Shown: piece after piece, positions 4,898 through 30,118 of the stretch
How the letters are laid out: each line of letters begins with the position of its first letter
How positions within the stretch are numbered: the stretch's first letter is position 1
Origin: a phage
Assembly: GCA_026165385.1 (NCBI GenBank)
Contig: GCA_026165385.1_4524.2
Length of the DNA: 49,697 nt
Direction: 5' to 3' (one strand)
The notes under the pieces: generated by a model
Seen by the model: only the letters and a program-made list of their open reading frames with translations
The model's database searches: none
What the model was told of the DNA's origin: nothing
Translations under genes and position numbers: made by a program

Positions 4898-4928
4898 ATG
4901 TACAAGCACCAAGGATGGTGATACTATA
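4898..4928 (+). promoter_or_regulatory. Early promoter-like element with spacer hairpin
   Basis: TGTACA -35 variant, hairpin CACCAAGGATGGTG in the spacer, TACTAT -10; same CAACCAAGGATGGTTGG spacer hairpin recurs at 25537 and 26557. Confidence 0.4.
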
Positions 4929-23945: not shown

Positions 23946-24473
23946 ATGAACGCTAAAGATATTTTCAACCTGGTAAATTATAACGACGGTAAATTTAAAT
24001 CTGAAGCACAAAGCAAGTTCTTTAATGATGTTGCTTATGGTAACGAGATTACCGTGGACGGAGGTCAGATTTTCAAATCTCGCTGGAATTGGATTGTTAT
24101 CATCGATTCAGTTGGAATTGTGGAAGTCTACAAAAACACCAACAAAAAACGTACATTATTCTGGTCTCGTGAAACTAACGAGCAATACAAAAAGGATAAA
24201 GCATCTCGTTTATCCAAAGTAACCCAGGAAGATATCGACTTCATCAAGAAAGATATCGAGATGTACGAAAATTTAATTGCTGAAGATCAGGCAGTACTCG
24301 ATAAGTTTGATGAAATTAAAGCTTCTCGTGAAATCCCTGACTTCATGAAAGAAACAGTAAACGAACGATACGCTCTCACTTCAGAACGTATTGCAAACTA
24401 TACAAAACAGAAAGCAGAACGTATTAGTACTCTTCGGAAATTTGAAGAACGTTTAAAGACGGTTCACGCATAA
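23946..24473 (+). CDS. Hypothetical protein, 175 aa
   Basis: SD GGAGG before the ATG. Confidence 0.6.
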   Translation: MNAKDIFNLVNYNDGKFKSEAQSKFFNDVAYGNEITVDGGQIFKSRWNWIVIIDSVGIVEVYKNTNKKRTLFWSRETNEQYKKDKASRLSKVTQEDIDFIKKDIEMYENLIAEDQAVLDKFDEIKASREIPDFMKETVNERYALTSERIANYTKQKAERISTLRKFEERLKTVHA

Positions 24474-24535
24474 ACGCTTTACCCAAGGACGGGTTATAAT
24501 GGTTTTGAGTTCCAATTCAATCTGAGGAAATAGTT

Positions 24536-25531
24536 ATGAGCATTACATCTGATGCGGTAAAACATGAAATTAACGGTTTATGTGCTTCACAGATTAAAGT
24601 GTGGTTTAAAGACCATAACGATCGCAGAGCACTTAATTATGAACAAATTGCTATCCAAGTTCATCAATTACTGGTTAGTAAATTTGATTTTCATATGCCG
24701 TCTGAAATCTATACTAATCTACCGCGAGCGCTTATTAAAGCGTGTAAAGGTTACGGAAAATCAATGGCTGATGGAATCTTCAGCGCGCTGAATAAACTTA
24801 ACGTTCTGTCGATGATTAACTCTAACAATATCCTTCGTAATCTTGGATATGTTGATTTGTTCTGTCGTGACCAATGTAAAATGCCTTTGAAATGGATTGT
24901 TGCTCATCTTAACGAGAACCAAACACGTTTTCTGGCCGTAACAGCGCGTTTACAAATGGGCCTAGATCGTCAGATGAACTTTAAAACTCATCCACGTTAT
25001 TCAGGTTCAACTGACTTTTATAAATGTGAGCTTCAAAAGGTCGGTGGCAAAACCGTCTTAGTAGTTCGTGTAATGTTTGAAGGACGACGTCAAGGATATT
25101 TTAACCTAATCGGCTCTGGTCTTAAACATTGTGGATTTATCGACGAAGTTGATATCAAGCGAGACGGCACTGGATATCGTATTGGATATGTTTGTACTCT
25201 TAAAGAAGAGATTTTAGGCCCGATCCCAGGACTAAAAGACGTTAGATATAAAGACGAGCTCATTGAAGAAATAAAAGAAGTTGAATATGATATCAACCAA
25301 GAAGATGCTCTTAAAGACCTTATTGATGAACTGAACCAAGACGTTATTCCGGTTCAGAAATTTGAATCAAAACATGCTGAGCAAATCAAATACTTTGAAG
25401 CTTTGATTAACGAACTTAATGTAACTATTCAACAGACTGACGATGAAATCTCACGATTAGCAGGCTTAAACGGTAAAAATAAAACAGAACGAGCTAATCT
25501 TATTCAAGTAGTAAAACTTCTTAAGGAATGA
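24536..25531 (+). CDS. Hypothetical protein with C-terminal coiled coil, 331 aa
   Basis: SD GAGGAAA; globular N-terminal region then a helical heptad-like C-terminal tail. Confidence 0.65.
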   Translation: MSITSDAVKHEINGLCASQIKVWFKDHNDRRALNYEQIAIQVHQLLVSKFDFHMPSEIYTNLPRALIKACKGYGKSMADGIFSALNKLNVLSMINSNNILRNLGYVDLFCRDQCKMPLKWIVAHLNENQTRFLAVTARLQMGLDRQMNFKTHPRYSGSTDFYKCELQKVGGKTVLVVRVMFEGRRQGYFNLIGSGLKHCGFIDEVDIKRDGTGYRIGYVCTLKEEILGPIPGLKDVRYKDELIEEIKEVEYDINQEDALKDLIDELNQDVIPVQKFESKHAEQIKYFEALINELNVTIQQTDDEISRLAGLNGKNKTERANLIQVVKLLKE

Positions 25532-25560
25532 TGTACAACCAAGGATGGTTGGAGTATAAT
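25532..25560 (+). promoter_or_regulatory. Early promoter-like element with spacer hairpin
   Basis: TGTACA -35 variant, hairpin CAACCAAGGATGGTTG in the spacer, TATAAT at 25555-25560. Confidence 0.45.
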
Positions 25561-25586
25561 AAATTTTTCAACATGAGGAATATAAA

Positions 25587-26546
25587 ATGGCTTTTATTAC
25601 ACGTAAAGAACTTATCAAAGAATTTACCTCGAACGCATATACTCCAGGACCTAATCCTATCCGTATGCCTGTAAAGACTCCTGAAGAGATTGAGGAAGTC
25701 TGTTCATATTATGGGATTACTTCTCGTAAGTTTACTCAATTTGAATGCGTTACTAACACACCCGTTAAAGAGTTCATTAAAAATGGTGAGTTCAGCCGTT
25801 TATTAGCCAAACAGAAACTTCGTAATTTTTGTATTGGTGGTGAAGGACAATATTTCGCTAAGCAGTTCCGGAATAACCTTAACAATCTGATGGCCATTGC
25901 TTCTCGTATTCGTCCTCAAGCAATTAACATGAAACATTTGAAATATACTTATGATAAGTTGGAAATCATGGTTATCAGTGAGAATGAGTTCACTCTTACG
26001 TATAAACCTAAGAATGATAACGTTGCTCGTGTATTCCACCAAGCGTTGGAAGTTTTAGGTGATAATATCCACCAGATTAAAGCAATTTATTCTCGTGAGC
26101 TTAATATTATCGACCCTATCAAGAATAAGGGCCATATCGCTATCCAAGCTCGTGTATCTATTGGTAAAAAGGTTCCTGCGCCATGGTGGCACAAAGACTC
26201 TGAATACTATCAAAATCTTAAAAAGGAAAATGCATTGTTTGAAGGCAATATTACAGCAACACCAGTCGGTAATGCAGAGGTTCTAGGCGCATATTCTCCA
26301 GCACAATCTGGTATGTTTAAAGGTTTGCCAAATGTGTGCAAACTGTCGGCAGTAAAACTAAATGTTTCTAATGACCTTCTTCCGGCCGAAGATTATCATT
26401 ACAACCAAATCAAGGCTACTGTAGACCAACTGTCCGTTGAACTTGACAAAGCACAAGCTAAGCTTCGTGATGCTCAACAGGTGGTGACCAATCTCCAGTT
26501 GCAGTACTCTAAACTTTTTAACGCAATGAATGCATTAAAATCATAA
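25587..26546 (+). CDS. Hypothetical protein with C-terminal coiled coil, 319 aa
   Basis: SD GAGGAA; C-terminal segment DQLSVELDKAQAKLRDAQQVVTNLQLQYSKL is coiled-coil-like. Confidence 0.65.
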   Translation: MAFITRKELIKEFTSNAYTPGPNPIRMPVKTPEEIEEVCSYYGITSRKFTQFECVTNTPVKEFIKNGEFSRLLAKQKLRNFCIGGEGQYFAKQFRNNLNNLMAIASRIRPQAINMKHLKYTYDKLEIMVISENEFTLTYKPKNDNVARVFHQALEVLGDNIHQIKAIYSRELNIIDPIKNKGHIAIQARVSIGKKVPAPWWHKDSEYYQNLKKENALFEGNITATPVGNAEVLGAYSPAQSGMFKGLPNVCKLSAVKLNVSNDLLPAEDYHYNQIKATVDQLSVELDKAQAKLRDAQQVVTNLQLQYSKLFNAMNALKS

Positions 26547-26550
26547 AATA

Positions 26551-26580
26551 GTTTACAACCAAGGATGGTTGGAGTATAAT
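26551..26580 (+). promoter_or_regulatory. Early promoter with spacer hairpin
   Basis: GTTTAC 26551-26556, hairpin CAACCAAGGATGGTTG, TATAAT 26575-26580; duplicate of the element at 25532. Confidence 0.5.
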
Positions 26581-26608
26581 GAATCTATCTTAACGAGAGG
26601 AAAATATT

Positions 26609-27556
26609 ATGACACGTTCACATTACATTGAATACTTTGCAGGTCTTATCGCTAACGCTCACGCTCAACGTGCTACTGGTGCTTGGACTGATGTTCCACA
26701 TAAAGGTGTGGTTTATAGTATTCTTCGTGATTTTCTTACATACACAGGCCAAGAAAATCATATCTGTAAAGATACCCAAAATGCATATTCTCATTCATTA
26801 GGGACGCTGCTTCAATGGTTCAAACGTTCTCGTTTATTATCTTCTACTGTAGCTCGCGATAACATTAAAAACTTTATGAAGCCGAGCTTTATTAAATCTG
26901 TGACATCTAAAACCGATTTGGTTGAATTCACTATTGTTAATGATGTTAAAAAGACTCATTTGGCTGATTGGTTATCTACCATTCCTGAAACTAAATTTGC
27001 TGATAAATTTGCTTGTGAATTCAATAACCAAGTGAATATGCTTTTTAAACATTCACGTAAATTATTCACAGGCGGCGATGATCGTACAAATAAAGTTCAT
27101 GTTAAAGATTGGGTTACTGCAGTATTCAAACCAACTGGTAATGGTAACGCATCATTATCAATTGATATCCAGGTTCCTTATTACTACTCACGTAATCTCG
27201 GCACCATGAAAGCCGAAGAAATTAAGAAGCACAATAAAACCGTTCGTTCGCTGTCTTATAAACTTCGCATGATGTTAAGAATCATGGATGTGGTAGAAAT
27301 GCACAGTGAAACCGAAGATAACGGTTCGATGTTATTCAGTTCTCGCATTCAAATTAAGTTGAAGAACCCTAATACATATAAACCTAAGTCTATTAAAGAG
27401 CCTAAAGCAGAAAAAGTTGATAACTTAAGAGAAGAACGCGAATATCTCAAATCTCGTCTGAAAGAAGTCGAAGCCCAGATTGCAGAACAAACTAAATCGT
27501 TAAAAGCTCTGAATGCGAAAGCGGATGGTTTACGAAATGCCATTGAGGTGTTATAA
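26609..27556 (+). CDS. Hypothetical protein with C-terminal coiled coil, 315 aa
   Basis: SD GAGAGGAAAA; C-terminal segment EEREYLKSRLKEVEAQIAEQTKSLKALNAK is coiled-coil-like. Confidence 0.65.
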   Translation: MTRSHYIEYFAGLIANAHAQRATGAWTDVPHKGVVYSILRDFLTYTGQENHICKDTQNAYSHSLGTLLQWFKRSRLLSSTVARDNIKNFMKPSFIKSVTSKTDLVEFTIVNDVKKTHLADWLSTIPETKFADKFACEFNNQVNMLFKHSRKLFTGGDDRTNKVHVKDWVTAVFKPTGNGNASLSIDIQVPYYYSRNLGTMKAEEIKKHNKTVRSLSYKLRMMLRIMDVVEMHSETEDNGSMLFSSRIQIKLKNPNTYKPKSIKEPKAEKVDNLREEREYLKSRLKEVEAQIAEQTKSLKALNAKADGLRNAIEVL

Positions 27557-27861
27557 TGAAACTACGTCTTTTAGAAGATATTGATATGAACACTAATCAC
27601 TGCTTGGTTAAGTTTATTGACGATAGTTCAAAGATTGAATTTGTTCAACGAGATAAAATTCATAGTGAAGAAGAGTTCGTTCCTCCGGCATGGAACGAAA
27701 TCATGAAAATGGTTGAACGACGTGAAAATGCTGCCAAATCGGCAGCAAAACATCCATGTCCGGAATGTGGAACTATCCAAGTCCAACTGGTTAACTGGAC
27801 CACTGATAACTTGAAATTGAAATGCCGTAAATGCTTCCACAAATTTGAGAGAACATTATAA
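27556..27861 (+). CDS. Zinc-ribbon protein, 101 aa
   Basis: Cys pairs CPECG...CRKC; start overlaps the upstream stop. Confidence 0.55.
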   Translation: MKLRLLEDIDMNTNHCLVKFIDDSSKIEFVQRDKIHSEEEFVPPAWNEIMKMVERRENAAKSAAKHPCPECGTIQVQLVNWTTDNLKLKCRKCFHKFERTL

Positions 27862-28274
27862 TGAGATATAGCCTTCGTTGTTTTATTGCAGCTTTAGTTT
27901 TTGCCATCATTCCATTCATTTGGAACAGTCAGAATACTTACATGGAAACTAAAGTAATTCCTGTGGAAGTAGTGGAATTAATCTCAGGCCAATCTACAGG
28001 AAAATATTCTAAATTAGAATTTATTGCAGTCTATAAAGATGAGCAAGGACGAGTTTTTGACAGGCGTGTATCACCGTCATTTTATACGCTTCTGAATAAA
28101 GGTGATACGATAGCTATAGAAATTCGTGAGATGGATATCAAACAAACTACTAAAGATAACTTGATTTGGTTCTTTGGTACAGTGTTGTTGGTTTCTATCT
28201 GTATCACAGGTTTTATTACATGTATTGTATTTGGCGTTGCATATTTAATCGACGAAAGGAAAAATAATGTTTAA
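27861..28274 (+). CDS. Membrane protein, 137 aa
   Basis: Hydrophobic helices at both termini; start overlaps the upstream stop. Confidence 0.55.
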   Translation: MRYSLRCFIAALVFAIIPFIWNSQNTYMETKVIPVEVVELISGQSTGKYSKLEFIAVYKDEQGRVFDRRVSPSFYTLLNKGDTIAIEIREMDIKQTTKDNLIWFFGTVLLVSICITGFITCIVFGVAYLIDERKNNV

Positions 28275-28530
28275 AGTGTACGGGTATGACTCTACTATTC
28301 ATAAATGCATTTATTGTGATAATGCGAAACGATTGCTGACTGTTAAGAAACAGCCATTCGAATTCATTAATGTTATGCCAGAAAAAGGTGTGTTCGACGA
28401 TGAGAAAATTACTGAGCTTCTTGTTAAGCTTGGACGTGAATCACAAGTTGGATTGACTATGCCTCAAGTGTTTGCTCCTGATGGAAGTCACATTGGTGGA
28501 TTTGATCAACTGCGAGAATATTTTAAATGA
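28267..28530 (+). CDS. nrdC: Glutaredoxin/thioredoxin NrdC
   Basis: 87 aa starting MFKVYGYDSTIHKCIYCDNAKRLL with CxxC active site; matches T4 NrdC as I recall it. Confidence 0.9.
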   Translation: MFKVYGYDSTIHKCIYCDNAKRLLTVKKQPFEFINVMPEKGVFDDEKITELLVKLGRESQVGLTMPQVFAPDGSHIGGFDQLREYFK

Positions 28531-28883
28531 CATATTCATTAAATCTTAAAGATTTCCAAGATGTATACGAAGTTTGTGCCAATGAACTTGGTCCTGATGC
28601 TCCAACTATTATTGAAGTTTTAAATGTGCTCCCTTCATCATTAGCTTACGAAGCCAAATCATGGGGTTGGAATGACACTGTCGTTCGTGATGACCTTTAC
28701 GTCCTGATGAATGATATGATGGTTAAAAAGGCAGAACCGGTTGCACCAATGGTTACCATTACCGTTGAAGAATATAATCGCCTGCAAGCCATTGAAGAGC
28801 TTCTGTGGAACATTGAATGTGACCTGCCGTCAGGGCTAGAATCCTGGATTGATTATGAAGAGCTCAATAAACTCCGGGGTTAA
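28527..28883 (+). CDS. Hypothetical protein, 118 aa
   Basis: ATGA overlap with nrdC. Confidence 0.6.
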   Translation: MTYSLNLKDFQDVYEVCANELGPDAPTIIEVLNVLPSSLAYEAKSWGWNDTVVRDDLYVLMNDMMVKKAEPVAPMVTITVEEYNRLQAIEELLWNIECDLPSGLESWIDYEELNKLRG

Positions 28884-29644: not shown

Positions 29645-30118
29645 ATGTTATTATCAGGCGCAAAATATAAAGAAGAAAAACAAAAATTTTATGATGCACA
29701 GAACGGTAAGTGTCCTATTTGCCACCGTGAATTAGACCCTGATGTTCAAGGTAACCATCTTGACCACGACCATGAATTAAACGGGCCAAAAGCTGGTAAG
29801 GTTCGTGGGTTACTCTGTTCTCTGTGCAACGCAGCAGAAGGTCAAATGAAGCATAAGTTCAACCGTTCTGGTCTTAAAGGTCGTGATGTCGACTACCTCG
29901 AATGGCTTGAAGCTCTTCTTGCTTATTTGAAACAAGATTATTCTGCTAATAATATCCATCCTAATTTTGTTCCAGACAAAACTAAAGAGTTCTCAAGACT
30001 AGGTAAAGAGGAAATGATGGTCGAGATGCTTCAAAGAGGATTTGAATATAATGAATCTGATACTAAAACACAATTAATAGCTTCATTCAAAAAGCAGCTT
30101 AGAAAGAGTTTAAAATGA
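29645..30118 (+). CDS. 49: Endonuclease VII (Holliday junction resolvase, gp49)
   Basis: 157 aa starting MLLSGAKYKEEKQKFYDAQNGKCPICHREL with HLDHDHELNGPKAGKVRGLLC motif; close match to T4 endo VII as I recall it. Confidence 0.95.
   Translation: MLLSGAKYKEEKQKFYDAQNGKCPICHRELDPDVQGNHLDHDHELNGPKAGKVRGLLCSLCNAAEGQMKHKFNRSGLKGRDVDYLEWLEALLAYLKQDYSANNIHPNFVPDKTKEFSRLGKEEMMVEMLQRGFEYNESDTKTQLIASFKKQLRKSLK

Follow-up and report, generated by a model that had tools for sequence, protein, structure and literature searches.

Tandem genes upstream of nrdC in a Mosigvirus phage as divergent paralogues of one T-even early-gene family with a possible counter-defence role

Evolved clones of phage T4 that lacked the nrdC.5 region failed to infect ECOR17, owing to its dsr1 gene, and expression of nrdC.5 restored plating on dsr1-carrying cells; the genes were dispensable in the evolved clones (Srikant, Guegler and Laub, eLife 2022, PMC9391042). 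Dsr1 is a SIR2 NADase, and for its tetratricopeptide repeat (TPR) sensor domain, also present in Avs7, a 2026 preprint reports recognition of the major capsid proteins of phages (PMC12803255). DSAD1, a phage inhibitor that binds the sensor domain of DSR2 (PMC11087589, PMC11263360), is a functional analogue only, in that it comes from a phage and neutralises a defence-associated sirtuin; it differs in phage, host and target (DSR2, not Dsr1), and we claim no sequence relationship. T4-type phages are also known to carry promoter-early stem-loop (PeSL) modules (Arbiol et al. 2010, Comeau et al. 2014; PMC2839356, PMC4122927). Here we describe three consecutive open reading frames (ORF1, ORF2 and ORF3) in a 49,697-nt stretch of phage DNA (assembly GCA_026165385.1, contig GCA_026165385.1_4524.2; hereafter the window), which represents a T4-type coliphage of the genus Mosigvirus (RB69/JS09-like). 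We propose, with a probability of roughly 55%, that the three ORFs are divergent tandem paralogues of one T-even early-gene family with a counter-defence role; we are more confident of the identity of the genes and of their paralogy, and less so of what ORF1 and ORF3 do.

ORF1-3 are already known T-even accessory genes. They fall in the accessory cluster upstream of nrdC whose T4 counterpart runs from nrdC.1 to nrdC.11, and gene annotations exist for all three in over 100 genomes of related phages. ORF3 is the orthologue of T4 NrdC.3 (y04O, 36.3 kDa), with 56% identity over 316 columns, the full length of the protein (E = 3e-118), and ORF1 is a homologue of T4 NrdC.6 (y05B, 31.7 kDa), with 31% identity over 271 columns (E = 1.5e-18). 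For ORF2 the identity to T4 NrdC.5 is just 23% (E = 9e-10), and the two proteins are alike in their position upstream of nrdC, their similar size, their C-terminal heptad helix and their early-type promoter. Both match Pfam family DUF7235 (PF23882) along their whole length [ORF2 E = 1.7e-120, 402.6 bits against a cut-off of 30 bits, residues 15-318 on model positions 1-307 of 307; T4 NrdC.5 E = 5.3e-126, 420.6 bits], as does orf82 of phage IME08. Each of the three proteins matches one PHROG family end to end (for ORF1, phrog_2257, residues 1-331 on 1-303 of 303, E = 6e-124; for ORF3, phrog_1435, residues 1-315 on 1-333 of 334, E = 5e-104), and close homologues carry the precomputed Pfam labels PF26899 for ORF1, PF23882 for ORF2 and PF26897 for ORF3. 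The allele type of ORF2 occurs in 133 phage records named as Escherichia, Shigella, Enterobacteria or Mosigvirus phages, and NrdC.3 in 654 phage records at 56-97% identity. The NrdC.6 family comprises only 6 clusters at 50% identity in an exhaustive representative search of 1.84 billion proteins, 2 of which are new full-length members.

Neither Pfam nor NCBIfam gives any of the three N-terminal regions a match to an enzyme or effector family; the NCBIfam search gave nothing above noise, and a sequence search of the PDB returned only weak coiled-coil matches (keratin, prefoldin, troponin T). In GenBank, homologues of ORF1, ORF2, NrdC.10 and NrdC.11, and occasionally of ORF3, commonly carry the label 'thioredoxin' or 'thioredoxin, phage-associated'. 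Searches of Pfam and NCBIfam give no thioredoxin family match for these proteins, and the label seems to derive from the names nrdC.x given to the genes, so that a widespread annotation error on homologues of all three proteins can be corrected.

Pfam and PHROGs keep NrdC.3, NrdC.4, NrdC.5 and NrdC.6 as separate families, whereas the present analysis merges them into one superfamily. Pairwise BLASTP among ORF1, ORF2 and ORF3 detects no similarity, and hhalign detects nothing when the first, shallow alignments of close homologues only are compared (effective number of sequences, Neff, ~1.6). Links between the families appeared after these had been widened with sequences from T4, IME08, CHI14, Roth66, STML-198 and IMG/VR. 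The equivalent interval was taken from T4, IME08 (Dhakavirus), CHI14 (Winklervirus), STML-198 (Gelderlandvirus) and Klebsiella phage Roth66, and also from KMB20 (Karamvirus), an Acinetobacter phage and two IMG/VR contigs, and the family alignments compared by hhalign had no sequences in common. A scan of viral contigs with the NrdC.5 alignment found only 4 loci. The first links came with the T4 proteins, T4 NrdC.4 matching ORF3 at E = 7e-5 and T4 NrdC.3 at E = 0.011. With the wider families nrdC.3 matches nrdC.4 over 202 columns (E = 1.6e-9, probability 96%), and nrdC.3 and nrdC.4 together match nrdC.5 over 128 columns (E = 1.9e-6, probability 90%), which places residues 71-233 of ORF3 on residues 63-171 of ORF2; the control families NrdC.10 and NrdC.11 give E values of at least 0.15 in this comparison. 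The single proteins of ~330 residues in Roth66, CHI14 and STML-198 bridge nrdC.3/4 and nrdC.5. The nrdC.6 family in turn matches the merged nrdC.3/4/5 profile over 80 columns (E = 7.1e-6, probability 84%, ORF1 residues 77-159), as compared with a best E of 0.047 for 30 column-shuffled controls, 0.038 for a reversed version and 0.19-0.77 for unrelated families; over all the superfamily comparisons the controls lie at E = 0.038-0.94. In the aligned block two motifs can be seen by eye in all members, S-R-L-L-S..A....h.N-F and F..N....hh..A.R-L. We conclude with good confidence that ORF2 and ORF3 are homologous, and that ORF1 is probably homologous to both.

Some neighbouring proteins show no such relationship. 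A protein of ~260 residues that we considered as the NrdC.6 equivalent in CHI14, STML-198, Roth66 and KMB20 was rejected (E = 0.26-0.53), and no relation of this protein to NrdC.6 or to the other paralogues is detectable. It is well conserved in its own right (pairwise E = 1e-117 to 1e-144; loci L009 12019-12792, L010 11328-12110, L011 12295-13083 and L012 12216-12992), and in Winklervirus, Gelderlandvirus, Karamvirus and the Klebsiella phage it always precedes a single NrdC.3/4/5-like gene. For the KMB20 and Konradin proteins in the equivalent position (~330-343 residues) no link to the family was found.

The second line of evidence comes from the C-terminal ends. The preliminary description had noted coiled-coil-like ends of roughly 50 residues, and these are borne out. 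On a home-made heptad score (the best 28-residue window, compared with 300 shuffles for each protein), the best window is C-terminal in all three proteins [ORF1 residues 281-309, z = 3.6; ORF2 residues 269-319, z = 3.8; ORF3 residues 278-313, z = 3.1] and also in T4 NrdC.3 and NrdC.5, while NrdC.10 and NrdC.11 reach z values of 1.6 at most. The tail segments are 30-50 residues long and are coiled-coil-like. Their hydrophobic 3-4 spacing, judged by eye, runs unbroken for ~3.5 heptads in ORF1, ~6 in ORF2 and ~5 in ORF3. A coiled-coil protein should show a/d periodicity over at least 4 heptads in a predicted helix, and the home-made scan agrees with this, with only ~3.5 uninterrupted heptads in ORF1. 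The ORF1 tail is conserved in the sequences P0057, P0058 and P0060, that of ORF3 is nearly invariant across the NrdC.3 family, and in ORF2 of Mosigvirus both body and tail are nearly invariant and the linker (residues 216-262) is rich in indels. The tail is also the part still detectable toward distant relatives, and some of these reach the ORF2 family through the tail alone (the CHI14 protein against DUF7235, and phrog_26858). Because a profile comparison restricted to the tails of nrdC.3 and nrdC.5 is significant (E = 3.4e-5), the tails are related beyond a generic heptad pattern.

The AlphaFold2 (AF2) models are poor for both proteins modelled, with a mean predicted local distance difference test score (pLDDT) of 49.1 for ORF1 (5 sequences) and 55.8 for ORF3 (29 sequences). 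For ORF3 the tail is predicted as one helix at 274-314, with pLDDT of 68-84 in 10-residue blocks from ~281 and of 52 at its start; for ORF1 the tail helices (281-296, 302-312 and 316-330) are of low confidence. The two models agree solely in the order of their elements, namely ~7 helices followed by a strand-helix-strand unit, after which come a linker and a last helix. A Foldseek search of BFVD and the PDB with the ORF3 model recovered only the NrdC.3 orthologue in BFVD, and otherwise noise at low template modelling (TM) scores. A joint MAFFT alignment of the three families misaligned the central motifs and was not used for structure prediction. Profile homology, the correspondence of the tails and the order of the secondary-structure elements therefore point to one diverged paralogous family and not to swapped effectors.

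The family evolves fast relative to its surroundings. The identities of ORF1, ORF2 and ORF3 to T4 given above compare with 78-91% for the flanking nrdC.11, nrdC.10, nrdC.8, nrdC and gp49. Phage genera differ in copy number, from 1 to 4: T4 has four members (nrdC.3, nrdC.4, nrdC.5 and nrdC.6), the window three, without nrdC.4, and IME08 also three, without nrdC.3, and a single member is detectable in each of CHI14, STML-198 and Roth66. A natural deletion of ~2.7 kb in phage ACG-C40 (L016, 3805-4213) runs from the nrdC.5 N-terminus to the nrdC.3 tail, so that a 71-residue N-terminal stub of nrdC.5 is followed by the last ~72 codons of nrdC.3 (82% identity to ORF3 residues 244-315), and all of nrdC.4 is gone, together with the greater part of nrdC.5 and nrdC.3. 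In the T4 reference (L003, NC_000866, 5997-6894, minus strand), nrdC.6 (275 residues) has a frameshifted end in ...IEELIFLFNNMMMKFSDYLD, where its relatives read ...IEELNISIQQYDDEIFRLSGLSSKAKSEREKLIKIVDLLKS, and its last tail codons (SKAKSEREKLIKIVDLLKS) persist between nrdC.6 and nrdC.5, in DNA that the annotation treats as intergenic. T4 NrdC.6 in the reference thus lacks the tail helix that ORF1 retains, and either the helix was lost by frameshift or the reference sequence holds an indel. The RB69 NrdC.5 entry (P0022, compared with window positions 26200-26546) diverges wholly from the other Mosigvirus alleles after about residue 230 and is without a heptad tail, which suggests a frameshift in the RB69 linker. 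The matches of ORF3 among phage records, Tequatrovirus included, form two bands, one at 60-80% identity (352 records; sampled 76-78%) and one below 60% (140 records; sampled ~55%, like T4 NrdC.3); the two bands hint at an exchange of alleles between genera. Taken as a cluster, the divergence, copy-number change, deletions and frameshifts, with the 43-nt direct repeats that bracket ORF2, suggest the signature of an arms race.

T4 NrdC.5 neutralises Dsr1, and therefore counter-defence is the best-supported function that we can infer for the array. ORF2 would retain the anti-Dsr1 activity of T4 NrdC.5, and ORF1 and ORF3 would be counter-defence proteins as well. By analogy with DSAD1 and DSR2, a plausible form of the activity is that of an early-expressed binder of the sensor or effector. 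Each gene has an early or middle promoter-like element and a Shine-Dalgarno sequence to itself, and so forms a self-contained unit of expression. The predicted common architecture consists of a globular N-terminal region of ~220-250 residues, in which a helical subdomain precedes a strand-helix-strand unit, then a variable, indel-rich linker, and then a conserved amphipathic heptad helix of 30-50 residues. The N-terminal region would bind and block a host immune protein, which for the NrdC.5 family would be the SIR2 NADase Dsr1, and the tail would oligomerise the inhibitor or contact a conserved partner. Different paralogues would serve against different immune variants, their N-terminal regions having diverged along with the targets. 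A bolder proposal, rather unlikely in our estimate, is that the cluster is a tandem array of immune-receptor inhibitors, each paralogue tuned to another member of the Dsr1/Avs7-type family of TPR-sensor defence proteins, and that these are assembled through their tails into homo- or hetero-oligomers, with promoter cassettes that enable gain, loss or exchange of copies between T-even phages.

Several points weigh against the proposal of a single family with a counter-defence role. Functional data exist for NrdC.5 only among NrdC.3, NrdC.4, NrdC.5 and NrdC.6, and at 23% identity to T4 NrdC.5 the target of ORF2 may differ or its activity may be lost. The link of ORF1 (nrdC.6) is the weakest, being based on 80 columns against a merged MAFFT profile, with direct family-to-family comparisons giving only E = 0.014-0.13. 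Both structure models are poor, the fold searches give no support at the level of the fold, and the coiled-coil call depends on a home-made score.

Among the alternatives, the one that retains a real, if minor, share of probability is that the genes are paralogues with another job in early infection (host takeover, a regulatory or a scaffold role), and that the effect on Dsr1 is incidental or peculiar to T4 NrdC.5. The restriction of functional data to one member would agree with this, as would the fair conservation of NrdC.3, which is less typical of arms-race genes, and the neighbouring nrdC.10 (AAA ATPase-like) and nrdC.11 (a nucleotidyltransferase), which suggest a region of mixed functions. 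However, the very fast divergence relative to flanking genes, the variable copy number, the natural deletions and frameshifts (T4 and RB69 references included) and the dispensability of the genes in evolved T4 clones (PMC9391042) all argue against it.

The preliminary description had read the three proteins as modular, with unrelated effector domains swapped onto one oligomerisation or targeting tail. Our results agree that they form one family and that its members share a helical tail at the C-terminus, but do not support unrelated and swapped domains, and we consider this model improbable. In its favour are the failure of BLASTP to relate the three proteins, the better conservation of the tail toward distant relatives, and promoter cassettes that could support cassette exchange. 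Against it, the N-terminal and central regions are homologous by profile comparison, and these regions have no enzyme or effector match in Pfam or NCBIfam. Moreover, full-length alignment to known families, which the preliminary description itself had named as grounds for refuting its model, is observed for all three proteins (ORF2 to DUF7235, ORF1 to phrog_2257 and ORF3 to phrog_1435). We found no chimera of the N-terminal region of one family with the tail of another; what appeared in ACG-C40 to be a tail on a different body is a deletion remnant. It is very improbable that the shared C-terminal 'coiled coil' is a coincidence among unrelated, helix-rich, charged phage proteins, as the short tails and heptad scores near the 99th percentile of shuffles for each protein might allow, given that the top-scoring heptad window falls at the C-terminus of ORF1-3 and of T4 NrdC.3 and NrdC.5 alike, that tail and body profiles are both significantly related, and that the nrdC.10 and nrdC.11 proteins score so low.

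Each gene is preceded by a GAGGA Shine-Dalgarno sequence and a promoter-like element (Table 1). The earlier observation that every ORF has its own promoter cassette, two of them with a common spacer hairpin, was confirmed. The elements TGTACA-N17-TATAAT (25532-25560, ORF2) and TTTACA-N17-TATAAT (26552-26580, ORF3) share in their spacers the 16-mer palindrome CAACCAAGGATGGTTG, which occurs exactly twice in the 49.7-kb window (25536 and 26556), with 0.02 copies expected by chance. They lie within 43-nt direct repeats of 86% identity that bracket ORF2 at a spacing of 1020 nt. The site equivalent to the ORF1 promoter is annotated as 'T4 middle promoter' in phage SA79RD, and its cassette contains the hairpin core with paired flanks. 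The window, T4 and IME08 all have the core CCAAGGATGG repeatedly in promoter spacers that precede genes of the nrdC cluster, and with one mismatch allowed it has 9 copies in the window as compared with 1.6 expected. Its flanks vary yet stay complementary (CAACC/GGTTG, CATCC/GGATG, AGCC/GGCT, TATACC/GGTATA and CACC/GGTG), and such changing but complementary flanks suggest a selected hairpin or a protein-binding palindrome, which may act in DNA, through recombination or protein binding, or in read-through RNA. As RNA the CAACCAAGGATGGTTG hairpin is weak (-5.3 to -6.9 kcal/mol), and it lies inside the promoter spacer without a T-run. The core, as CCAAGGA(T/C)GG, is found at window positions 4909, 24483, 25539, 26559 and 46739 and also in intergenic regions of L003 and L008; it stands inside, and once just after, early and middle promoter-like elements.

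These cassettes resemble PeSL modules in that repeated early promoters (of the TTTACW-N17-TAYWAT type) are combined with a palindrome in a hyperplastic region, and in that direct repeats flank a non-essential ORF, here ORF2. A repeated sigma-70-like early promoter with a stem-loop thus flanks an accessory ORF, as in PeSL. They differ in that the palindrome here is within the -35/-10 spacer and without a T-run, whereas the PeSL stem-loop is a separate element beside the promoter, and the core CCAAGGATGG is unlike the published PeSL stem-loops, which have a G-tract and C-tract (RB49, phi1) or an AGNA-loop-TCNT form (PST/T4 pair). By analogy with PeSL modules, the geometry of the 43-nt repeats would allow the excision or exchange of ORF2 by homologous recombination.

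Table 1. Features of the ORF1-3 cluster and their positions in the window
Feature	Coordinates	Strand	Evidence
Middle-type promoter cassette before ORF1: MotA-box-like GCTTTA, palindrome ACCCAAGGACGGGT, TATAAT	24476..24500	+	sequence
ORF1, NrdC.6-family protein, 331 aa	24536..25531	+	31% identity to T4 NrdC.6
ORF1 aa 77-159, helical, motifs LNKLNVLSMINSNNILRN and NENQTRFLAVTARLQMG common to NrdC.3/4/5 (probable homology)	24764..25012	+	hhalign E 7.1e-6
ORF1 C-terminal heptad helix region, aa 281-331, broken by GLNGKN	25376..25528	+	heptad z 3.6
Early-promoter cassette copy 1, before ORF2: TGTACA (-35), spacer palindrome CAACCAAGGATGGTTG, TATAAT (-10)	25527..25569	+	43-nt repeat
ORF2, NrdC.5-family protein (Pfam DUF7235), 319 aa	25587..26546	+	23% identity to T4 NrdC.5
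ORF2 aa 63-171, homologous to ORF3 aa 71-233, motifs FSRLLAKQKLRNF and FRNNLNNLMAIASRI	25773..26099	+	hhalign E 1.9e-6
ORF2 C-terminal heptad helix, aa 269-319	26391..26543	+	heptad z 3.8; a/d unbroken I275-L317 by eye
Early-promoter cassette copy 2, before ORF3: TTTACA (-35), same spacer palindrome CAACCAAGGATGGTTG, TATAAT (-10)	26547..26589	+	43-nt repeat
ORF3, NrdC.3 orthologue, 315 aa	26609..27556	+	56% identity to T4 NrdC.3
ORF3 C-terminal heptad helix, aa 274-315	27428..27553	+	AF2 single helix 274-314; heptad z 3.1

The three ORFs, which the preliminary description had already placed correctly, lie upstream of nrdC (28267-28530) and gene 49 (29645-30118), and the + strand of the window is the direction of early transcription toward these genes. 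Positions 24000-28600 show 95-98% identity to more than 100 Mosigvirus genomes. Several of these (H3, H5, H7 and H9) match the region in two pieces and span ~315 bp more than the window, a sign that a short stretch has been inserted or deleted at some point of the cluster. With respect to the nrdC-mobD interval of T4, the order nrdC.8, nrdC.6, nrdC.5, nrdC.3, nrdC.2 is retained. The window lacks both nrdC.1 and nrdC.4, and contains no further paralogue of ORF1-3 that we could find. The T4 nrdC.7 gene lies between nrdC.8 and nrdC.6, whereas its homologue in the window (27861-28274, a predicted membrane protein with 41% identity) adjoins nrdC directly upstream. A further promoter-like element, TTTACG-N17-TATAAT (27529-27557), is found inside the last codons of ORF3, and its -10 box overlaps the ORF3 stop and the ATG of a 101-residue nrdC.2 homologue (TTATAATGA), which carries a CxxC...CxxC zinc-ribbon signature.

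What is new here is not the genes but the uniting of NrdC.3, NrdC.4, NrdC.5 and NrdC.6, which our profile comparisons suggest are one fast-evolving family with a conserved tail. If this is true, the list of candidate counter-defence genes grows by three uncharacterised early genes that occur in hundreds of T-even coliphages, and the comparison of paralogues would separate the part that recognises the target, the variable N-terminal region, from the structural part, the conserved tail.

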